This document shows, piece by piece, positions 32,283-54,187 of a DNA stretch of 64,000 bases; positions within the stretch are counted from its first letter, which is position 1, and each line of letters starts with the position of its first letter. The translations under genes and the position numbers were made by a program. This DNA comes from Minisyncoccota bacterium (GTDB lineage: Bacteria > Patescibacteriota > Minisyncoccia > Phycocordibacterales > JAQTLZ01), in assembly GCA_028714635.1 (NCBI GenBank), contig JAQTLZ010000001.1, forward strand, positions 173,272 to 237,271. Reading direction: 5' to 3'. The notes beneath the pieces were generated by a model. That model saw only the letters and a program-made list of their open reading frames with translations, made no database searches and was not told where the DNA came from.

Positions 32283-32624
32283 ATGAACACCGTTGCAGTA
32301 CCCGGTTGTCCGGGAACAGTGGTTGAGGAATTGCCGAGCGCCCTCGGTAGGCAGTTCTTGCGAGTTACAATCGAGCGTGGTGGTGAGGTGCCACTACACT
32401 CGCACGAATGCGCAGCGACCATGATCGTTACTCACGGATCAGCTCGCAAACTTGTCGAGCGCGGAAACGCCGAAAGGGTGAAAGCGGGTGATGTTATCAC
32501 TAAAGCGGCGCGAGAACCACACGGGTTCACAGAAATTGGAGAGGAGGGATTCTCCTTCATTTCCGTTTCTGGTGGTCTCGGTATTGTCCAAGAAGGTGGC
32601 AAGCTCGACATGGAACTTGTTTAA
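32283..32624 (+). CDS. cupin-domain protein
   Basis: Strong SD AAGGAGGAAG; two-His cupin-like motifs (PLHSHE; HGFTEIGEEG); GC-rich; 113 aa. Confidence 0.45.
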   Translation: MNTVAVPGCPGTVVEELPSALGRQFLRVTIERGGEVPLHSHECAATMIVTHGSARKLVERGNAERVKAGDVITKAAREPHGFTEIGEEGFSFISVSGGLGIVQEGGKLDMELV

Positions 32625-39877: not shown

Positions 39878-39964
39878 ATTTGAACTGTGAACCCATTGCG
39901 TGGCTTTCAGAACTTACTAAACAGAGACAGTATATCGGTTTAGCAGTCGAAAAGCTTGAAGCAC

Positions 39965-45422: not shown

Positions 45423-47582
45423 TTATAGTTTTACATCAATCACTCTGGTAGTGTCGTTACCGAAGATGTCCACGACCTTTACTGCAACTTTGTAGTCTCC
45501 CTTTGGAAGCTCTTTTGGTGCAGACTTGAACTCAAGATTTCTATTCTTCTTTGTACGGAAACTTTGCCATTCGTTGTCAAAGATATAGTCTCCAGTCCAA
45601 ACATCTTTTTCTTCACCGTCCTCAATAACCTTGATGATTTCTTTACGGTCCGCAAAGTTGTAATCAACCGCCCAGTAATCAATCCAGTCGCTCCACTTTT
45701 TTGTGAGGACCTCTCGTGATACAAGTTCGGTATCTTTGTCCTTTGTTACTTTCAATACCTGACCGTTTTCGATGATTACTTTTGACCTTCCAGCCTTTAG
45801 TTCTTCATCAATTGCACCATTGTCTTGGTTGTAGAAAACAGAGAAGTCAGTAATCTCAATTGAGAGTTCTTTCATTGAACCTCTACCAGTAATAATTGGT
45901 TTGATGTCGATGTAGGCAACGTCATAGAAGTTCACCTGACCACGCTCAACTGCACGCTTATCAAACACTTCACGTGGAATGATTTTGAAAGCAACATCAA
46001 TACCTTCGTCAGCATACTCACCAAAGTTCATTCCCATTTCGTAATCGAAACCGAGAACATCAATTTTAGTAAGATTTTTCTCCTTACACTCACTAACAAT
46101 TTCACGAATAAACTTTGAAGATACAGGAAGGTTGATAGGACCGATTGCTACCAATCTGTCTCGCTTCTTTCCTACAACGTGTGCGAAGCTCTCAACAGGT
46201 TCAGCTTTGTAGGCAGAGAGAATAAGCTTGATGAACTCTTTTTCTTTTCGGTCTGCTTGTTTTGCTTTCTCTTCAGCACGTAAGTCATCGTTAGTATTTA
46301 GGAAGCTTTCACGCTCGTATTTACCAACGTTCAATATCTCAAATGCACGGAAATCTTTTCCTGCTTTTTTGAGTTCACGTTGAATACCAACCATTCGCTT
46401 TCGAGAGGTGTGTATACCGAACTTACCTAGGTCAGTGCCTATCCACTTACGACCAAGTTTTTCAGCCGTTGCAATCGTTGTGCCTGAGCCAACAAAAAAG
46501 TCAGCTACTAAATCTCCCTCATTTGAGGAGGATTTTATAATTCTCTCTAGGAGGGCAGATGGTTTTTGTGTCGGGTAGTCTAGTCGCTCTTTTGACATCG
46601 AGTTTTCGTAAGGGATTTCCCACACATCGTTCGGTATCATTCCTTCCTCTGGATAGTAGGTTCTCCATTTACCTGCATCAAATCTTTTTCTACACACTTT
46701 TCCATTATCATCTTTATCCCTAAAGTGAGATTTTATGTATTCATCAGAGTAAGGAACACGAGCTCCTTTTTCGTTGAAGTACGTTTTGTTTGATTTTCCA
46801 TAGTAAAAAATAGTGTCGTGCTTTTGTGCAAACCTATCATCTGGTCTTCCTAGTGTTGAGTAATACCAAATAATTTCATTCCTGAAGTTTTCTTTTCCAA
46901 ATATCTCATCGAGCGACATTCTCATAAAAGCACTAACTCGCCAATCACAATGCACATAAATACTTCCATCTTCGGCGAGTAGCTCGTGCATCAACTTCAG
47001 ACGCTCGTAAATCATTGCAATAAAGCTGTCTGCACCTTTACCCCACGTATCACGATAGGCAATCTCTTCAATTACAGAGGGCTTCTTTGTGAAGCTGTCA
47101 TTTTCTTCACCAATTGAAATGTTCATTGAAAAGTCAGCTCCCACATCAAAAGGAGGGTCAATATAGATAAGTTTGAGACCCCCTTGAGCTTCAATCTCTT
47201 TTCGCATTGGACCGTTCTTGAGAGATGAGAGAATGAGTTTGTTATCTCCCCAGATTAGTTTGTTGGTCCAGCCAGTAATTTGCTTACCAGAGAAATCAAA
47301 CAACGTACCTTTGTCGCCAAACTCTTTACCTTCTCGTGGTTCATCAATCTGCTCAATTACTTGGAATGGAAGAACTACGTTTGTAACTTCGTTAGTCTTT
47401 CCATTCCAAACAAGCTCGACTTCACGGTCATCTTTGAAGAGAAGGAAGCGGTACTTTTCTGGAAGGGGTTTTCCAGCTTCGAGGAACTTCACAATGTCTC
47501 GCTTTTCGTTGTCAGAAAGATAGAGTGAGCCACTCTTGGTCTGTCCGTTCTTTTGTTGTTCGTTGTCTTTTTTCATATACAT
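45423..47582 (-). CDS. mod: type III R-M DNA methyltransferase Mod (beta-class N6A/N4C MTase)
   Basis: Motif IV IYIDPPFD precedes motif I FFVGSGTTIATAEKLGRKWIGTD (beta-class order); 719 aa. Confidence 0.85.
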   Translation of the reverse strand: MYMKKDNEQQKNGQTKSGSLYLSDNEKRDIVKFLEAGKPLPEKYRFLLFKDDREVELVWNGKTNEVTNVVLPFQVIEQIDEPREGKEFGDKGTLFDFSGKQITGWTNKLIWGDNKLILSSLKNGPMRKEIEAQGGLKLIYIDPPFDVGADFSMNISIGEENDSFTKKPSVIEEIAYRDTWGKGADSFIAMIYERLKLMHELLAEDGSIYVHCDWRVSAFMRMSLDEIFGKENFRNEIIWYYSTLGRPDDRFAQKHDTIFYYGKSNKTYFNEKGARVPYSDEYIKSHFRDKDDNGKVCRKRFDAGKWRTYYPEEGMIPNDVWEIPYENSMSKERLDYPTQKPSALLERIIKSSSNEGDLVADFFVGSGTTIATAEKLGRKWIGTDLGKFGIHTSRKRMVGIQRELKKAGKDFRAFEILNVGKYERESFLNTNDDLRAEEKAKQADRKEKEFIKLILSAYKAEPVESFAHVVGKKRDRLVAIGPINLPVSSKFIREIVSECKEKNLTKIDVLGFDYEMGMNFGEYADEGIDVAFKIIPREVFDKRAVERGQVNFYDVAYIDIKPIITGRGSMKELSIEITDFSVFYNQDNGAIDEELKAGRSKVIIENGQVLKVTKDKDTELVSREVLTKKWSDWIDYWAVDYNFADRKEIIKVIEDGEEKDVWTGDYIFDNEWQSFRTKKNRNLEFKSAPKELPKGDYKVAVKVVDIFGNDTTRVIDVKL

Positions 47583-47602
47583 TTGGTTGATTAGCTAATA
47601 AG

Positions 47603-47821
47603 TTACTTTGGCGACTGGACAAACTTTTCGAGGTCCTCTTTTTTATATCTTCTTGCTCTACGTTCACCAATTCGTATGGCAGGAAGTATGCCTTTCTTAT
47701 CCCATTGCCGAAGCGTGTTGGGATGACACTTGAGATAAGCAGATGCTTCTTCCAAAGTGAGAAGTTCTGGCAAATCCCCATCATTTTGCGGTGTTTTTTT
47801 CGTTGATTTCATACCTAACAT
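47603..47821 (-). CDS. small helix-turn-helix DNA-binding protein (excisionase/MerR-like)
   Basis: LTLEEASAYLKCHPNTLRQWDKKGILPAIRIGERRARRYKKEDLEKFV resembles Xis/AlpA-type HTH; 72 aa; leads the mod-res operon. Confidence 0.5.
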   Translation of the reverse strand: MLGMKSTKKTPQNDGDLPELLTLEEASAYLKCHPNTLRQWDKKGILPAIRIGERRARRYKKEDLEKFVQSPK

Positions 47822-47843
47822 TTGATAACATTATTATACATAA

Positions 47844-47878
47844 CCTTCACAACGTTCACAATGTGCACGGACCGTGAA
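47844..47878. promoter_or_regulatory. GTGAAC-type repeat cluster in the divergent intergenic region between the HTH gene and the 431-aa gene
   Basis: ccTTCACaacGTTCACaatGTGCACggaccGTGAAaacc; adjacent TATGTATAAT (minus-strand sense) could be the HTH promoter. Confidence 0.45.
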
Positions 47879-47889
47879 AACCAATGTAA

Positions 47890-49185
47890 ATGTATATGAG
47901 TAGCCTCAAAACCACTGAGAAGAAGATACTTGAAAAGCTTTTCAATATGGAAGGTGGCTATGTGCTGAGTTTTACTGATAAATCATTCGAGAAGTTCCTC
48001 AAAGATGACTTCAATATCTCGGTCTACAGTGAGATGTACGACTTGGACTTTCCAAGTAAATCAAAAGCAAACCGACTACGTGGTATCTGGAGTGTAGAAG
48101 ATGATGCGAAAGTTGGAGGTATTATTTTGGAACTTGTTGAGTGTGCGGAGACCGACATTTTGACATCAGGCAAAGAGATGTCTGCTATTGAAAAGGACCT
48201 TACTTCAAAGGCACGTGATATAGGGATACGCTTACTGTTTACAGAAATTGCTGACGGAAGCACCAAACCAGAAGTTCAGAAGCTGAAGACTAAGGCTGAA
48301 CTCATAAAGGGTTTCAATAGTATTGATTTCAAGGAGATGGAGCCTAACAAGCGTATCTATCTGCTAAAGGTTCTGTTCTCTTACTACGATGCGATTATTC
48401 GTGCATACAGAGGCTCAGGATTGTTCTATCTCACATCAGGCATTGATGACCTCAATGACTATTTCAAGGTCCTCAGAAAGCGAATGATTGAGCTACTCGA
48501 TACATACGACACTTTTGTTGAAATGAAGAAGTCGCCCACTTATACGGACTTCATTGAGCCTGTAACAAGCCTTTACGCAAGTCAGGACTATCTTGAAGTC
48601 GTGTGGGAAGAAAGCGTGCTCCCTATGCTCATCAATTTCCGTGAAGACATAGCTGATAGAGACCTGTTTGATAATCAGTCAGAAGTTCACAAAGTTCACG
48701 TTGAGGTGTTGAGCTTTTTGGATGCTATCTCAAAAGAGATTGAGGCTCTCAATGGGTATATGAGCCAGCAAACAAAGAAGTTCTACGATACTGACCTACC
48801 AGCAGAGAAAGAAAGGCTATCCAATATCTTTCCATCCGAAGAGCTATACATCACAAAACAAGGTGATGATTTTCGATACAAAGGAAAGCTACTGAACCTC
48901 TCGAAGAAAGCCGACTACTACAAAGTTTTTTGTGCTTTATACGCACTCCTTCCGCAAGGTGGAGAAATTGAATACAAGCCTCTTATAACTGAAATCAAAA
49001 GCAGAATACCGAAGACCAAAGCGAAGTCTGACGAAGAAATGCGAAAGCTTATACAAGGTAATCTCACTGATAAAAGCAACGGCTTTATCCGCTATGCAAA
49101 ACTGCCAAATACGGAGGACAATTCCAAGCCACTCATCGAAGTTATAAAGGGCTTTGGAGTGCGTTTCAACAATAAAGCTGGCTAA
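47890..49185 (+). CDS. hypothetical protein
   Basis: 431 aa, acidic, begins MYM; no recognised motif. Confidence 0.4.
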   Translation: MYMSSLKTTEKKILEKLFNMEGGYVLSFTDKSFEKFLKDDFNISVYSEMYDLDFPSKSKANRLRGIWSVEDDAKVGGIILELVECAETDILTSGKEMSAIEKDLTSKARDIGIRLLFTEIADGSTKPEVQKLKTKAELIKGFNSIDFKEMEPNKRIYLLKVLFSYYDAIIRAYRGSGLFYLTSGIDDLNDYFKVLRKRMIELLDTYDTFVEMKKSPTYTDFIEPVTSLYASQDYLEVVWEESVLPMLINFREDIADRDLFDNQSEVHKVHVEVLSFLDAISKEIEALNGYMSQQTKKFYDTDLPAEKERLSNIFPSEELYITKQGDDFRYKGKLLNLSKKADYYKVFCALYALLPQGGEIEYKPLITEIKSRIPKTKAKSDEEMRKLIQGNLTDKSNGFIRYAKLPNTEDNSKPLIEVIKGFGVRFNNKAG

Positions 49186-49224
49186 TCCTGAAACTTCCTG
49201 AGAATAGATAAGTTCTCCTGACTA

Positions 49225-49259
49225 AAACACCTTTGAAATAAAGGGTGTTTTTTCGTTTT
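49225..49259 (+). terminator. rho-independent terminator
   Basis: aaacaccttt gaaata aagggtgttt then ttttcgtttt. Confidence 0.75.
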
Positions 49260-49361
49260 CCTGAATGTTCAGGAAGTACGCAGAACAATCTCAAAAAGCA
49301 AAAATCAATCTATAGAACTTTTCTTGGCGGAAGTTCACTTACTCATAAAACACCAATGTAA

Positions 49362-49664
49362 ATGATTATGAAAAGAAACAATGAGAGCGATGAGCTCCAC
49401 AACGTCCCTTTGGACGATTACAAAAACTATTACTACTCGAACGATATTGATGTCGCATCAACCCTCATATGTAAAGGATATGAATTGGTAGACATCACAC
49501 CGATAAGCCACAACAAGGCTACCTTCGTATTCAAAAATCATCCTGCAATTACGGATGCGGTTGAAGGCTTTTGGAGCAATCGAATTGAGGTCCGACCTCT
49601 TGAGTTCGCTAACGTCAGAAAAAATCTGAAATCACGCATCTTCGGAATGCGGAAAACTTACTAG
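49362..49664 (+). CDS. small hypothetical protein typical of mobile-element replication modules
   Basis: 100 aa; YYSNDIDVASTLICKGYELVDITPISHNKATFVFKNHPAITDAVEGFWSNRIEV resembles a small family I recall from phage/ICE loci; low certainty. Confidence 0.35.
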   Translation: MIMKRNNESDELHNVPLDDYKNYYYSNDIDVASTLICKGYELVDITPISHNKATFVFKNHPAITDAVEGFWSNRIEVRPLEFANVRKNLKSRIFGMRKTY

Positions 49665-49676
49665 CCCATAAATGAA

Positions 49677-51032
49677 ATGTATATGCAAAACAAAGAAGAA
49701 AGACAAGAAAAAATTATCCTGAAGACAAGTATCACAACGCCAAACGAGCTCTACGAAATGGTGTTTGACCGAAGTGAAAACAAAACCTCTTTCATAAAAA
49801 TTGATAGAGATGGAAAAATTGAGACCCTGCTGGAAGAGGTGGAAATTGGCGGAAGAAAGTATCGACCACTTCCATCTGATTACAACCTCGTGGACAAGAA
49901 CGTCATCTTGTTTCCATCACTTGCTACACCTTATGAAAGCGAGGAAGAAATACTCACTGAAGTACAGCATTTTATCCATAAACACCTAGACATCTCTGAG
50001 GTATTCGAGCGTATAGCTACTTACTACGTTCTGTTTACGTGGCTATTCGACAAGTTCAATGAGGTCCCGTATCTACGAGCAATTGGTGATTTTGGAAGCG
50101 GTAAATCACGCTTTCTCCAAGCTATCGGAATACTCTGCTACAAGCCTGTATTTACTGGAGGTGCGACTACTCCAAGTCCGATATTCCGCATCATCAATGA
50201 GGTAAAAGGAACGCTCATCATAGACGAAGCTGACTTCAAGTTCTCGGATATGACATCAGAGATTGTGAAGATATTGAACACTGGATACCAGAAAGGAATG
50301 TCCGTGCTTCGTTCTGAAGGAAAAGGGACCTTTGAAGTAAAAGCCTACGATGTATTTTGTCCGAAAATTGTAGCCACTCGTGAGACCTTCGCTGACAAGG
50401 CACTTGAGAGCCGATTTCTCGTTGAAGAAATGGGTGCTGGAAAGTTGCGTACCGACATCCCACGCACTCTTGATGAGAGCTTTTATGAGGGTGCTGAATT
50501 GATACGAAACAAGCTCCTGATGTGGCGACTGAAGAACTACTTTGAGCCGATAGAACGTAGGCACGATTTGATTGAAGGAATACATCCACGACTGAACCAA
50601 ATCGTTATGCCACTTTTATCCATCATCAAAGACGAGAGTATCAGAAATCAGCTCAAGACTTTCATTGTTCAATACAACGCTGAACTGGTAGCAGACCGTG
50701 GTCTTTCGTGGGAAAGCGACATTGTTTTTGCAGTCCTGAAATTGGAGTACGAATTGAAAGGAAACGAGCTAACAGTCAAACAGATTACTGACGAAGTGAA
50801 CAAGGAAATAGATGTAAGCGATGACACCCTACAGGCTCGAAAAGTCGGGTGGTATTTACGAGCAAAACTACAACTCAAGCCTTATAAAACTCGAAAAGGA
50901 TACGTACTTTCTTTCAAGGAAAACAGGAAGCGATTGGATATGTGGAAGGAACGCTTTGGTATCACCGATGCGGATATTCGTGGTGAACAAGTGAATGTCG
51001 TGAACGATGCTGAAGCTATTACCAATAACTAA
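49677..51032 (+). CDS. P-loop NTPase, probable replication/primase-associated protein (VirE/D5-like)
   Basis: Walker A AIGDFGSGKS, Walker B LIIDEADF, about 130 aa N-terminal domain before the P-loop; 451 aa. Confidence 0.45.
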   Translation: MYMQNKEERQEKIILKTSITTPNELYEMVFDRSENKTSFIKIDRDGKIETLLEEVEIGGRKYRPLPSDYNLVDKNVILFPSLATPYESEEEILTEVQHFIHKHLDISEVFERIATYYVLFTWLFDKFNEVPYLRAIGDFGSGKSRFLQAIGILCYKPVFTGGATTPSPIFRIINEVKGTLIIDEADFKFSDMTSEIVKILNTGYQKGMSVLRSEGKGTFEVKAYDVFCPKIVATRETFADKALESRFLVEEMGAGKLRTDIPRTLDESFYEGAELIRNKLLMWRLKNYFEPIERRHDLIEGIHPRLNQIVMPLLSIIKDESIRNQLKTFIVQYNAELVADRGLSWESDIVFAVLKLEYELKGNELTVKQITDEVNKEIDVSDDTLQARKVGWYLRAKLQLKPYKTRKGYVLSFKENRKRLDMWKERFGITDADIRGEQVNVVNDAEAITNN

Positions 51033-51041
51033 ATCATTCTT

Positions 51042-51554
51042 ATGGAAAACAAGTCAAAAGGTGGTCCAAAAACAACTGAAGGAAAGGCAATCTCGAAGTA
51101 CAACGCAATCAAACACGGATTGCTCTCAAAAGAGGTGCTTGTTGATGGTGAAGATGAGAAGACACTCCTAGAACTCAATCAAAGCGTACACGACCAATTT
51201 CAGCCAGTAGGACCGATAGAAAAGATGCTGGTAGACCGTGTTGTATCAAATCTCTGGAGACTACGAAGAGCTGTCTTTGTCGAGACTGCAACGATGAACT
51301 GGTATCGAGCTGACATCAATCTCTTTCCAATTGGACAGGATGATGAGCAACAAGAACGACAGAACGTAAAGAATATGTTGAGCAACGAAAGTATCGAGAC
51401 CATTCTTCGATACGAGACAACCATTGAAAGAAGCATCTTCAGGGCTCTTCACGAGCTTGAGCGTATACAGGCTAAAAGAAACGGGAAAGACGTTTCAATT
51501 CCAGCCGTGGTCGATGTAAACGTGGATAGTTCGTTTCGCAAAAATGACCAATAA
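51042..51554 (+). CDS. hypothetical protein
   Basis: 170 aa, helical, no motif. Confidence 0.35.
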   Translation: MENKSKGGPKTTEGKAISKYNAIKHGLLSKEVLVDGEDEKTLLELNQSVHDQFQPVGPIEKMLVDRVVSNLWRLRRAVFVETATMNWYRADINLFPIGQDDEQQERQNVKNMLSNESIETILRYETTIERSIFRALHELERIQAKRNGKDVSIPAVVDVNVDSSFRKNDQ

Positions 51555-51569
51555 CAGTGAGGTTCTCAA

Positions 51570-52211
51570 TTGATTTCGGAAGATAAAAACATTATGAGTA
51601 AAACAGAAGCAGATGACTGCAAGAAAATAGAAATATGGTGGCTCCTGCGAGACATCAAGGAGAAAGGTGGTTACAAATACACCACTGTTTCTTGGGGTGA
51701 AAATGGTTCACACGGAAGCGTATCTGTGCAGGTATCTGTATGGGACGAAGAAAAATACGCTCGCTTTATTTACTCGCAAACTGACCATTCTACAGGTGAA
51801 AAGAAGGACTTCGACTACAAGGTCCCCATCATCACCACACCTTGTCATCTAGGTGGAGAACGATATTGGTTCAAGTGCTCTCTATTCAAAAACGGAGAGC
51901 AATGTGGACGACGTGTTGGTGTGCTCTACAAAGATGGTGATTGGTTCGGTTGTCGTCATTGTTACGAGCTCACCTACAAATCAAAAAACGTAAACAAGGG
52001 GTACAAACACTATCCGATGTTTCGAGTTCTTGAGCTAAGGATGGAAATAGACAGGCTCGAAGAGAAGTCACATCGACACACATACAACGGAAAACCAACC
52101 AAGAAGCGGATGCGACTAGAAAAGCTTTATCGAGAAGCAATGCTCCAGCATCGTGCTTTTTACGAGACTGAAAAAGGTCTCAAAGTCAGCAAAAAAGGTC
52201 GAGAGTTCTAA
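51570..52211 (+). CDS. hypothetical protein with Cys-rich zinc-ribbon-like region
   Basis: CHLGGERYWFKC...CGRRVG...CRHC pattern; 213 aa. Confidence 0.35.
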   Translation: MISEDKNIMSKTEADDCKKIEIWWLLRDIKEKGGYKYTTVSWGENGSHGSVSVQVSVWDEEKYARFIYSQTDHSTGEKKDFDYKVPIITTPCHLGGERYWFKCSLFKNGEQCGRRVGVLYKDGDWFGCRHCYELTYKSKNVNKGYKHYPMFRVLELRMEIDRLEEKSHRHTYNGKPTKKRMRLEKLYREAMLQHRAFYETEKGLKVSKKGREF

Positions 52212-52225
52212 TCAAAAATGTTATT

Positions 52226-52468
52226 ATGAGTAAGTTACACGAAAGCCTGAATAATGCTCCGCAACCGCAACCTTCCAAGGAGCAGGACCAGCTTTTGTGT
52301 GAAGGTCCAAAGCACCTGCTCTCGAAAGATACCCTTGATGCTTTGGAAGAACTCGGTGGTGTTCTCAGGAACATTCACAGGAGAATGGTATCTGAAGGAT
52401 ACGAAATTGTAGATGGAAACATCCGCAAAGTAGTACCGCAAAATGTAAATGTATATGAAAAAGCCTAA
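52226..52468 (+). CDS. hypothetical small protein
   Basis: 80 aa; overlaps the recombinase start by 20 nt. Confidence 0.3.
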   Translation: MSKLHESLNNAPQPQPSKEQDQLLCEGPKHLLSKDTLDALEELGGVLRNIHRRMVSEGYEIVDGNIRKVVPQNVNVYEKA

Positions 52469-54146
52469 TATCAAAACTGAAAAAGATTTGATTGCCGAAA
52501 TACTCTCTGGTAAATACCGTGATTGTCATTTGATATATAACAGAAAGAGTACGGACGAAGCTGACAACCAGAAGAACTCCATTTCATATCAAAAGATAGA
52601 GAACACTCGTTTTGCACATCGAGAAAAACTTTCCATAGCACAAATCACCATCAAAGGTTTCTCTGCTGACGGCATCATTTCCGAAAAGCACTCAGGGTTT
52701 ACTGAGGACGATGATATAAACATTACCGATGACGGTTTGGTTCAATACAGAATTGATAGACCAAAGTTCCAGAGAATGCTTCAGTTCGTTAGCCAAGGGT
52801 ATTTCAAAGGTGTCGTATGTCTTTGTTGGGACCGTATCAGTAGAAATAAAGGAGATGACACTCTTATCCGAAAGCTTATGCGTAAGGGTGTAGATTTTCG
52901 CTTTGTATACGCTAAATACGAGAAGACAAGTTCAGGTGCTCTTCATATGGATATTGATGGAATGTTCTCTCAACATCACTCACGTGTTACAAGTGAGAAA
53001 GTAACGCTCACCATCCGTAACTCACGAGAGAAAGGCATATGTACTTACAGAGCACCAATCGGCTATCTCAATCAAGGGAAAATGGAAGATAAACCACTAG
53101 ACCCATTCCGTGCACCCATAATCAAGCAGATGTATGAGTATTACGCTACAGGAGACTGGAGCCTGTCAGACATTGCTCGCTTTGCAAATGACCAAGGTTT
53201 TACCACAGTACCGATGAGGCGTAGAAGGACAAAAGAAGAAATGCTCGCTGAGGAAGACGAGTTTGAGGAAATAGAAAAGACCTCACGTCCTGTAAACGAA
53301 AACCATATCAGCAGAATACTTACTAATCGCTTTTATACAGGAAGGACCCTCAACTCAGAAGGTAAATATATCCAAAGTATCAGCCACGTAGCTATCGTAA
53401 GCGATGAGCTCTTTGATGACGTTCAGGCTGTGCTCAAAAAGAAGAAAGTGAGCGTTCACTATACGGAAAAACTCGACCAGCCACTTCGAGGTGTTGTACG
53501 TTGTGCACATTGTGAACGTGTATACACACCATACATAAAGAAAGGTATTCAATACTACAATTCACGCTGTACAAAAGACTGTAAGAATACGGACAAGAAC
53601 TTGAGTTTTGAGAAGATTGATAAGAAAATCAGTGGACTTATTACAGGTCTGCATTTTACCGATGACGAAATAGAACAGATGGATGCTCGTGCAGGTACAG
53701 AGATTGCGTTGCTCGAAGAGAAGCGTCATAAAACACTCGACCAAGTAGAGAGAAAAAAGAAAAAGATACGAGAAGACCTTGCATACCTACGCTCGAACAA
53801 AATACCTCTCTTGAAGGCTGGAGTGTATACACCTGAGAGTTATGTTACCGAGGAAACAAAACTTGATAGTGAACTTTCTTTGTTGCAGAGCGAAGAGCAA
53901 GCATCAGACATCGCAATGCACGAGACAATGAAAGAGGTTCAAAAACTTTCAGAACTCGTCAAAAACGTTGCTCTATATTATCAATTCGCAAAACCACACG
54001 AAAAAGAGCAGATTGTTCGTGTAATCTTTTCAGAACTTTCTATTGCTCAAGATGTGTTGCAATTCAAGGTCAAAAAAGGATTTGAAGCCTTTGAAAACCG
54101 TTTCCTTGCTATTTGTGACCCTACAGAGAATCGAACTCTGATTTGA
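52449..54146 (+). CDS. large serine recombinase
   Basis: Resolvase catalytic domain with Ser in YNRKSTDEADNQ and CLCWDRISRN (RxSR-like) motif, recombinase domain, C-terminal Cys4 zinc ribbon CAHCERV...CTKDCK; 565 aa. Confidence 0.85.
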   Translation: MYMKKPNIKTEKDLIAEILSGKYRDCHLIYNRKSTDEADNQKNSISYQKIENTRFAHREKLSIAQITIKGFSADGIISEKHSGFTEDDDINITDDGLVQYRIDRPKFQRMLQFVSQGYFKGVVCLCWDRISRNKGDDTLIRKLMRKGVDFRFVYAKYEKTSSGALHMDIDGMFSQHHSRVTSEKVTLTIRNSREKGICTYRAPIGYLNQGKMEDKPLDPFRAPIIKQMYEYYATGDWSLSDIARFANDQGFTTVPMRRRRTKEEMLAEEDEFEEIEKTSRPVNENHISRILTNRFYTGRTLNSEGKYIQSISHVAIVSDELFDDVQAVLKKKKVSVHYTEKLDQPLRGVVRCAHCERVYTPYIKKGIQYYNSRCTKDCKNTDKNLSFEKIDKKISGLITGLHFTDDEIEQMDARAGTEIALLEEKRHKTLDQVERKKKKIREDLAYLRSNKIPLLKAGVYTPESYVTEETKLDSELSLLQSEEQASDIAMHETMKEVQKLSELVKNVALYYQFAKPHEKEQIVRVIFSELSIAQDVLQFKVKKGFEAFENRFLAICDPTENRTLI

Positions 54147-54187
54147 GCCTTGAGAAGGCTCCGTCCTGACCGTTAGACGATAGGGCC
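54116..54187 (-). tRNA. tRNA-Glu (anticodon CUC); 3' part overlaps the recombinase gene end; one acceptor-stem mismatch
   Basis: Reverse complement GGCCCTATCGTCTAACGGTCAGGACGGAGCCTTCTCAAGGCTCAAATCAGAGTTCGATTCTCTGTAGGGGTC; D-arm and anticodon loop TTCTCAA closely resemble bacterial tRNA-Glu; acceptor pair 2:71 is G:G. Confidence 0.55.

Follow-up and report, generated by a model that had tools for sequence, protein, structure and literature searches.

A tandem-ATG motif at gene starts of a Patescibacteria mobile element as a candidate translation-initiation region without a Shine-Dalgarno sequence

Why should five genes of a single mobile element, lying on both strands, begin inside the same short sequence? 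The question is raised by a 64,000-nucleotide (nt) stretch of contig JAQTLZ010000001.1 from a Minisyncoccota bacterium (positions 173,272 to 237,271), here called the window, in which an element at approximately 39.9-54.15 kb is bordered by a PBP gene on the left and by tRNA-Glu and M23 peptidase genes on the right. Five of its genes begin within copies of a motif of about 20 bases, CCA-ATG-TAA-ATG-TAT-ATG-AAAAA, whose three in-frame ATGs are designated ATG#1 to ATG#3 below. Our reading of this motif is a tentative one, which we favor while holding it to be somewhat short of probable: it may represent an RNA-level translation-initiation region (CCA-AUG-UAA-AUG-UAU-AUG-AAAAA) that is read by the ribosome and that dispenses with a Shine-Dalgarno (SD) sequence.

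The five copies, on the genes for the methylase Mod, a 431-amino-acid (431-aa) protein, a DUF5659 protein, a P-loop protein and a large serine recombinase, were all located in the window sequence where the initial annotation had placed them (Table 1). Its description of these genes was likewise borne out: translation yields four MYM and one MIM N-termini, an in-frame ATG-TAA lies 5' of the annotated ATG in three of the five, and none of them has a recognizable SD. When the 64 kb were scanned allowing up to three mismatches, nine matches were obtained, as compared with a mean of 1.55 in shuffled sequences, and none of 100 shuffles reached nine; the five strong matches all lie at element gene starts, and the other four are weak and lie off gene starts. 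The copies on the 431-aa and recombinase genes are identical 15-mers, the mod copy is without the first ATG and without the stop, and mod-like cargo genes at other loci carry ATGTAAATGTATATG, ATGTGAATGAATATG or ATGTAGATGTAAATG. A separate reverse-complement copy that could encode an antisense RNA was not found in the element, and Rfam covariance models, run over the whole window at gathering thresholds, returned six tRNAs only and left the motif unmatched.

Is the motif peculiar to this element? Loci were fetched around homologues of the P-loop protein (35 from genomes and 80 from metagenomes), and gene starts were counted for 934 called genes in 89 loci of candidate phyla radiation (CPR) type. 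The same motif recurs on orthologous genes in dozens of related elements, for example as gcctcaaaATGTAAATGTATATGaaaaag on the recombinase gene of locus L002 and as aaacaccaATGTAAATGATTATG on the DUF5659 gene of L004. In the zone from -6 to +3.5 kb around the P-loop start it stands, scored as ATGnnTATG, at 117 of 600 gene starts, as compared with none of the 334 farther out (p = 7e-25). Frequent occurrence at chromosomal gene starts, named in the initial annotation as speaking against an element-specific signal, was not seen (0 of 334), and the proposal of such a signal is upheld by conservation on orthologous genes of many related elements together with absence from host gene starts. Given three ATGs, the consensus reads CCA ATG TAA ATG TAT ATG AAAAAA, with no conservation farther upstream; at long open reading frames (ORFs) the motif is always oriented with the gene and in register with it, and the last ATG is the start codon. 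It is confined to a fixed subset, made up of the replication, recombination and DUF5659 genes plus the variable and the first cargo gene. The idea that it controls all modules of the element is therefore not supported; no copy was counted on p201, p80, HTH72 or res (Table 1). The 17-mer AATGTAAATGTATATGA was also considered as a phage-wide signal and was rejected: viral contigs gave more than 120 matches, of which 0 of 121 open an ORF of at least 60 aa, and these matches are chance occurrences in AT-rich phage genomes.

Could the motif be devoid of a dedicated function, that is, a start 'cassette' that spread from gene to gene through recombination at module junctions and was then kept by descent? 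Conserved boundary sequences do occur at gene junctions in mosaic phage genomes, and here non-homologous genes in the variable and cargo slots share the same sequence. Nevertheless, this explanation strikes us as highly improbable, because several copies, at the DUF5659/P-loop and p80/recombinase junctions, belong to a block of conserved synteny rather than to mosaic boundaries, because 15 nt are too short for homologous exchange, and because the 15-mer is identical in elements whose proteins are 62-88% identical and whose flanking DNA has diverged. In addition, the T at position -1 is kept while the residue that it helps to encode varies.

This last point bears on a second question: which ATG starts the protein? 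Comparisons among the loci indicate that it is most likely the third and last one. Database entries for the P-loop protein have either 451 aa (MYMQN...) or 449 aa (MQN...), and a 449-aa entry from a Candidatus Pacebacteria metagenome-assembled genome (MAG), P0002, is identical to the window protein from the third codon on, which identifies the host as one of the Patescibacteria (CPR). Among the best 120 of 1485 homologues, MQN, MNN and MKN starts outnumber MYM, MHM and MNM, and P-loop relatives without an upstream ATG retain only (C/T)AT-ATG. In orthologues of a gene of ~811 aa, the codon before the last ATG is TAT (L232, L179), TAA (L173, L168) or TAG (L008), and tandem start-stops are found as ATGTAAATGTAAATGACA (L173/L168), as ATGTAAATGTAGATGGCA (L008) and, on the mod gene of L009, as ATGTAGATGTAAATGAAA (ATG-TAG-ATG-TAA-ATG). 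Where a stop directly follows the second ATG, only the third can start the protein. Where the codon between ATG#2 and ATG#3 encodes a residue, this may be S, L, F, P, I, Y or N, and the codon always ends in T; in DUF5659 homologues, the apparent second residue is S, L, F, P or I and the codon is always NNT. A T-ending codon with a varying residue points to a constraint at the nucleotide level, at -1, and not to a protein constraint. Host starts favor a T at -1 (47%) and an A at +4 (48%), a context that recurs at the third ATG of the motif. The MYM and MIM N-termini, although correct as translations, are probably two residues too long and would then be an annotation artefact; gene callers are split between the second and the third ATG (451 versus 449 aa for proteins that are the same in all else), and the 'MYM' N-termini in databases are probably wrong.

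How might these starts be recognized? All 13 element genes are without an SD-like sequence, defined as GGAG, GAGG or AGGA at 4-18 nt before the start. The initial annotation had set the lack of an SD at the five motif genes against the chromosomal genes nearby, and the cupin gene does carry AAGGAGG; the contrast was overstated, however, as only about 10 of the 50 host genes in the window have an SD. Among 169 host first genes, defined by an upstream spacer of at least 60 nt and taken from the window and the flanks of L001-L212, TAnnnT peaks sharply 6-8 nt before the ATG, where it is found in 60 genes over a background of about 6 per position. This peak suggests that leaderless mRNAs are widespread in these Patescibacteria hosts, and leaderless-looking examples are present in the window (Table 1). 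Against this background, the motif could conceivably act in transcription, as a promoter or start-site element giving each motif gene a (near-)leaderless transcript of its own, with TGTAAAT as an unusual -10-like box and TAT as a Y-R-Y start element. The T at -1 fits the Y-R-Y 'start element' of Terrabacteria promoters (PMC12641261), ATATAAATG variants yield TATAAAT, and in the DUF5659-less loci L021 and L026 the sequence TAGAWAT-acac-ATG resembles TGTAAAT-gtat-ATG. Furthermore, about 45 nt separate the DUF5659 copy from a terminator hairpin upstream, and a conserved TTGGYG lies 25-31 nt before its ATG#1. Yet TAnnnT is found 6-8 nt before ATG#3 in none of 55 promoter-proximal motif genes, as compared with 60 of the 169 host first genes (p = 3e-9), it is missing at leaderless distance from ATG#2 as well, and nothing convincing as a -10 precedes ATG#2 or ATG#1; by its sequence, the motif does not qualify as a canonical leaderless promoter. 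TGTAAA has neither the A at -11 nor the T at -7 that are essential, and the variants TGTGAA, TGTAGA and TGCAAA hit the A-tract. The only sigma-70-like site of the 431-aa gene predicts a leader of ~45 nt that contains the motif, and a sigma-70 scan of the element gave nine promoter-like sites, as opposed to 28 in shuffles, with the one belonging to the excisionase-like helix-turn-helix (HTH) gene as the only strong one.

The setting of the copies is equally telling. Of 108 motif genes, 44 (~40%) overlap an upstream same-strand ORF or follow it by at most 25 nt; the other 64 copies have longer or divergent gaps upstream. In the window, the mod copy lies 20 nt past the stop codon of the HTH gene, ATG#2 of the P-loop copy lies 12 nt past that of DUF5659, and the recombinase copy sits inside the 3' end of the 80-aa ORF p80, which reads through it in another frame. 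At other loci, p80 ends on the TAA of the recombinase motif (L008, L012, L017), in a TAATG overlap (L020/L022) or in an ATGA overlap (L005), and the motif remains constant across loci while the p80 end varies in this manner, read-through in another frame included. Such tight or overlapping junctions, within conserved coding sequence and with no -35, leave no room for a promoter, and there is no conserved -10 upstream; a transcription signal is thus distinctly unlikely. Because the junction copies must be transcribed within the upstream cistron, a role common to all copies would have to act on the RNA, at initiation. No 16S gene, whose 3' tail might be complementary to the motif, is present in the fetched loci.

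How might a ribosome make use of such a motif? The comparisons show its conservation, its specificity for the element and for particular genes, its fixed phase relative to the start codon, protein starts at the third ATG and the lack of a canonical promoter. A direct reading by the ribosome, with re-initiation taking part, is what we infer. We envision a scenario whereby the last AUG starts the protein, in a U-AUG-A context that host genes also prefer, and whereby the one or two extra in-frame AUGs that precede it, six bases apart and with the first usually closed by a stop, capture ribosomes that are newly arriving or have just been released by an upstream cistron. The motif stretch is unstructured and almost without C, with G in the AUGs only. 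A ribosome pairing at AUG#1 would terminate at once and re-initiate on the neighboring AUG, and AUG#1-stop plus the next AUG would constitute a minimal 'bicistronic' coupling device. The outcome would be SD-independent entry points on the replication, recombination, DUF5659, variable and first cargo genes, with the other element genes being translated through ordinary coupling. That the conserved units are ATG triplets, in one frame and with 3-nt spacers, argues for the ribosome alone as reader. Among 67 unique triple-ATG arrays, a stop follows ATG#1 in 51 (TAA 42, TGA 7, TAG 2). The ATG-stop is frequent where no translated upstream cistron is obvious, as in all seven 431-like copies, and rare on the P-loop gene (1 of 31), whose start follows the DUF5659 stop by 8-19 nt across loci; the notion that the mini-ORF is a stand-in for a terminating upstream cistron may therefore account for part of the pattern.

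A number of observations weigh against this scenario. The other 16 of the 67 arrays have a sense codon in spacer 1, where the transition neighbors of TAA are not only TGA (7) and TAG (2) but also the sense codon CAA (5); the start-stop appears as the consensus state, from which selection of the stop as a stop is not demonstrable. In variants, ATG#1 is replaced by ATA, ACG, TCG or CTA, none of them an alternative start codon. Mod-like genes retain the ATG-stop even though the HTH gene ends 15-20 nt upstream, which weakens the logic of a surrogate cistron, and the P-loop copy in the window has no stop, its upstream ATG being out of frame and opening an overlapping ORF of 17 codons. An effective signal that is read by the ribosome only should also occur on some host genes, and 0 of 334 have it, while the restriction to a fixed gene subset looks like a regulon. 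Finally, the model leaves unexplained how the ribosome first finds AUG#1 within a leader. A more far-reaching version would make the motif a self-contained, host-independent ribosome-entry cassette of a previously undescribed class, with an AUG-stop 'cistron' and tandem in-frame AUGs replacing the SD. We consider this version rather unlikely; if true, a broad-host-range CPR element could load ribosomes (possibly 70S, in a leaderless-like fashion) on chosen genes anywhere in an operon.

Does the motif correspond to a known device? The AUG-UAA of the plant gene NIP5;1 is a case of a start-stop, and start-stops have reportedly been seen in E. coli by retapamulin ribosome profiling (Ribo-seq). As in start-stop upstream ORFs (uORFs), an AUG followed by a stop lies here just 5' of the main ORF, at a conserved position and without elongation. 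However, the stop is followed at once by further in-frame AUGs, the real start among them (AUG-UAA-AUG-UAU-AUG), it is not obligatory (being absent from 16 of the 67 arrays), and the arrangement is common to several genes of one mobile element in an SD-less context, whereas the start-stops known from eukaryotes act as repressive gates within long leaders that are scanned. Start-stop elements have been described in human (bioRxiv 10.1101/2021.07.26.453809, PMC13338717). In E. coli ptrB, a 5'-uAUG recruits ribosomes to a downstream start, and translation of the uORF is not required (Beck et al., 2016, PMC4965119); there, too, an upstream AUG, even one with a quick stop, is needed for ribosome binding nearby, and 70S ribosomes bind such AUGs. 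The main start of ptrB has an SD, though, and its uAUG is located at the mRNA 5' end, 26 nt upstream, in contrast to the SD-less motif with AUGs 6 and 12 nt upstream and many operon-internal copies. Termination-reinitiation coupling is described in bacteria and archaea (PMC6728339), and a bicistronic design of the leaderless type has been engineered in Corynebacterium (PMC10367133). These likewise place the stop of an upstream frame beside the next start, as p80 does when it ends on the motif TAA, TAATG or ATGA; unlike them, the motif can have AUG-UAA alone as its 'upstream cistron', and a fixed sequence is reused on several genes. Leaderless mRNAs share the absence of an SD and seem to be widely used by the host lineage, but they differ in that motif genes have no -10 at leaderless distance (0/55) and are in many cases internal cistrons. 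The motif thus has features of start-stop uORFs, of 5'-uAUG recruitment, of termination-reinitiation and of the RegA operators discussed below, and fully fits none of them; our literature search found no bacterial example of tandem start codons or of a start cassette with tandem ATGs. How translation is initiated in CPR/Patescibacteria is essentially unstudied, and in the hosts here SDs are sparse and leaderless-looking genes numerous. A cassette of 20 nt, nearly invariant on the replication, recombination and cargo genes of a very widespread family, would provide a mutable handle on SD-less initiation or its control.

Alternatively, the motif may be a translational operator: an RNA-binding protein of the element, for which DUF5659 is the leading candidate, would recognize the AU-rich AUG repeats and compete with the ribosome, so that, for as long as the element stays integrated, the genes for replication, recombination and cargo would be repressed together. 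The precedent is RegA of phage T4, which represses translation through unstructured A+U-rich operators that overlie the AUG in ~30 early mRNAs; its SELEX-derived consensus (aaAAUUGUUAUGUAA; AAAAUUGUUAUGUAA) contains AUGUAA, and an upstream UAA has been proposed to contribute to recognition by RB69 RegA (PMC3014915). The motif resembles the T4 and RB69 operators in being a short A+U-rich sequence that overlaps the AUG of many mRNAs from one mobile genome, in being limited to a gene subset of that genome (0/334 host genes carry it), and in that no stable structure is predicted around the DUF5659 copy. Where DUF5659 lies directly upstream, the P-loop gene has the tandem ATG in 30 of 42 contexts, as compared with 1 of 23 where it does not (p = 8e-8, a value not corrected for phylogeny), some loci at 74-84% P-loop identity are without both, and the recombinase gene carries the motif in 16 of 24 contexts with DUF5659 and in none of three without. 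The best-conserved copy lies on the DUF5659 gene itself, as would fit autoregulation, and the protein has an invariant basic C-terminal helix, RKNLKSR. Still, the correlation with DUF5659 is confounded by shared ancestry and by operon context, as its gene immediately precedes the P-loop gene in the operon, and neither a RegA homologue nor a known RNA-binding family was found among the element proteins with Pfam, PHROGs and NCBIfam. Natural RegA sites are poorly conserved, whereas the motif is nearly invariant, and RegA targets have SD sequences. Moreover, a binding site needs no in-frame ATGs, yet spacer 1 holds all three stop codons. We regard an operator of this kind as less likely than a motif read by the ribosome alone, and yet as a serious contender, ahead of the other alternatives considered.

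The same loci also contain a second repeat that is specific to the element, GTGAAY-N2-3-GTGAAY, which reads TTCACA on the opposite strand. It has 142 matches in 1.04 Mb of related loci, nearly all of them within -6 to +4 kb of the P-loop start, and copies occur at equivalent positions in L002, L004, L012 and others. Three places hold clusters of them: the 3' end of the P-loop gene, where 63 matches fall in the conserved region that codes for GEQVNVVN, the divergent regulatory region, and the interior of the recombinase gene; two in the window (42722 and 41163) lie 4-6 nt before the starts of cargo genes (UvrD-like and 160-aa genes), and two others form a perfect 17-nt inverted pair. Present in both orientations and also inside genes, the repeats behave like DNA sites of the operator or iteron type and are probably iterons or operators. 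Might the ATG motif, then, also be a DNA operator, a degenerate GTGAAY relative (GTAAAT, GTGAAT) that lies over the starts of short-leader genes and is bound by a DNA-binding protein of the element? GTGAAY repeats, too, are element-specific, some stand just before cargo starts, and in L002 they run into the motif (GTGAACgtGTGTACgatGTGAATGTATATG); in the window, TTCACA/GTGAAY repeats lie 5' of the 431-aa copy, in the divergent regulatory region. The DUF5659 copy, in turn, abuts an inverted repeat, TTGGYG-(20-26 nt)-CRCCAA, which is found just 5' of the motif in L003, L008, L171, L009 and others. Its arms show compensatory changes (TTGGTG/CACCAA, TTGGCG/CGCCAA, TTGGCT/AGCCAA, TTGGTGA/TCACCAA), with one mismatch in the window, and are weak as an RNA fold. 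However, the ATG motif is strictly co-oriented with its genes and in start-codon register, where GTGAAY tolerates both orientations and gene interiors; its period is 6 nt, against 8-9 nt for GTGAAY; and its best-conserved bases are the ATGs, not GTRAAT. A DNA operator is therefore a very unlikely explanation of the motif. For the TTGGYG/CRCCAA pair itself, a stable RNA hairpin was rejected, its folding energies equaling those of shuffled sequence (z -0.65 to +0.5); since it folds no better than shuffled sequence, the pair may be a two-half-site DNA operator that brackets a promoter.

Table 1. Motif copies, other signals and genes of the element and its surroundings, in window positions. Fractions refer to related loci and count unique start contexts; starts are the most likely start codons.
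Feature	Position	Strand	Sequence	Parts of the copy	Motif at gene starts	ATG-stop in motif copies
mod (N6/N4 methylase) copy; class of mod-like first cargo genes	47574-47588	-	AACCAAATGTATATG, also given as aaccaaATGTATATG	start 47576-47574	4/9	4/4
431-aa gene copy (variable-gene slot); class of 431-like variable genes	15-mer 47884-47898; full motif 47881-47898	+	ATGTAAATGTATATG; full CCAATGTAAATGTATATG	ATG#1-TAA 47884-47889; ATG#2 47890; start (ATG#3) 47896-47898	7/10	7/7
DUF5659 gene (100 aa) copy	15-mer 49356-49370; longer form 49353-49370	+	ATGTAAATGATTATG; longer CCAATGTAAATGATTATG	ATG#1-TAA 49356-49361; start 49368-49370	28/42 (ATGnnTATG)	15/28
P-loop gene (451 aa) copy	49671-49685	+	AATGAAATGTATATG	start 49683-49685	31/62 (ATGnnTATG)	1/31
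Large serine recombinase gene copy	52443-52457	+	full motif ATGTAAATGTATATG	start 52455-52457	17/28	8/17
p170		+			1/27	
p201	51606-52211	+			0/39	
p80	52226-52468	+			0/18	
HTH72					0/12	
res		-			0/8	
DUF5659 gene	49368-49664	+				
P-loop gene	49677-51032	+				
Recombinase ORF	52449-54146	+				
HTH_17/excisionase-like gene	47603-47821	-				
Tandem start of HTH gene	47807-47821	-	ATG-TTA-GGT-ATG-AAA			
Sigma-70-like promoter of HTH gene	47861-47833		TTGTGA-17-TATAAT			
Terminator hairpin	49224-49251					
Inverted-repeat arms at DUF5659	49324-49329; 49351-49356		TTGGCG; CACCAA			
GTGAAY repeats	47846-47868; 50991-51013; 53503-53519					
GTGAAY repeats	48699; 42722; 41266; 41163	-				
Inverted GTGAAY pair (17 nt)	47852-47868; 53503-53519					
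Non-coding sequence before p201	51555-51605		TTGATTTCGG			
tRNA-Glu(CTC)	54115-54187	-				
Left end of element	~39878-39960		ATTTG..TGTGA.CCC			
Cupin gene	32283-32624		AAGGAGG			
Leaderless-looking gene	61865		TATAATttcagtATG			
Leaderless-looking gene	54218		TATACTaccccaATG			
Further host genes serving as examples	36512; 24940					

What kind of element carries the motif? In the order of transcription, its minus strand encodes the excisionase-like HTH_17 protein, mod, res, a UvrD-like helicase and two genes of unassigned function, and its plus strand the likewise unassigned 431-aa gene, DUF5659, the P-loop gene, p170, p201, p80 and the large serine recombinase. Searches with PHROGs and NCBIfam (for the small and unassigned proteins) and with Pfam (for all element proteins) identified families for the excisionase-like HTH, the UvrD-like helicase, res, mod, DUF5659 and the serine recombinase only. 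Because the recombinase ORF runs with its final 32 nt into the 3' part of the tRNA-Glu(CTC) gene, the element is integrated at or within that gene and contributes part of it; the left end, just past the PBP stop codon, bears a weak resemblance to the right junction. The best 120 of the 1485 P-loop homologues are all at least 78% identical, those among them with names come from MAGs labelled Pacebacteria, Moranbacteria, Nomurabacteria or 'Patescibacteria group', and P-loop proteins of 80-90% identity are found across MAGs with several different CPR lineage labels. In the homologues P0113 and P0118, the P-loop part is fused to an N-terminal PrimPol (PF09250) and PriCT_1 domain, and on the strength of these fusions the P-loop protein probably forms the helicase/ATPase portion of the initiator of element replication. 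The motif is absent from distant homologues in Acidobacteria, Verrucomicrobiota and Gemmatimonadota (37-42% identity), and tblastn of the P-loop protein against phage and plasmid records gave only ~30% identity over part of its length, to hypothetical proteins. A literature search returned nothing on DUF5659 or on this element family, for which the motif together with the GTGAAY repeats offers a cheap marker to find and delimit members in metagenomes.

Some further features of the element genes deserve mention. Confident AlphaFold models were obtained for p201 and DUF5659 (predicted local distance difference test scores of 81 and 83), with no significant match to either in the PDB. The p201 model comprises a beta-rich domain with five invariant cysteines (C80, C91, C100, C116, C119), followed by long helices, and that of DUF5659 has a beta-alpha-beta-beta-alpha-alpha topology along with the invariant basic helix. 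A conserved non-coding sequence, TTGATTTCGG, lies in the p170-p201 spacer ~15-20 nt before the p201 start and is kept across L001-L028, even in loci without p170. The excisionase-like HTH gene has a conserved tandem start of its own, seen also in L004, L005 and L009, in which two in-frame ATGs are 9 nt apart with AGG between them and which is located 11 nt downstream of the best sigma-70-like promoter of the element.

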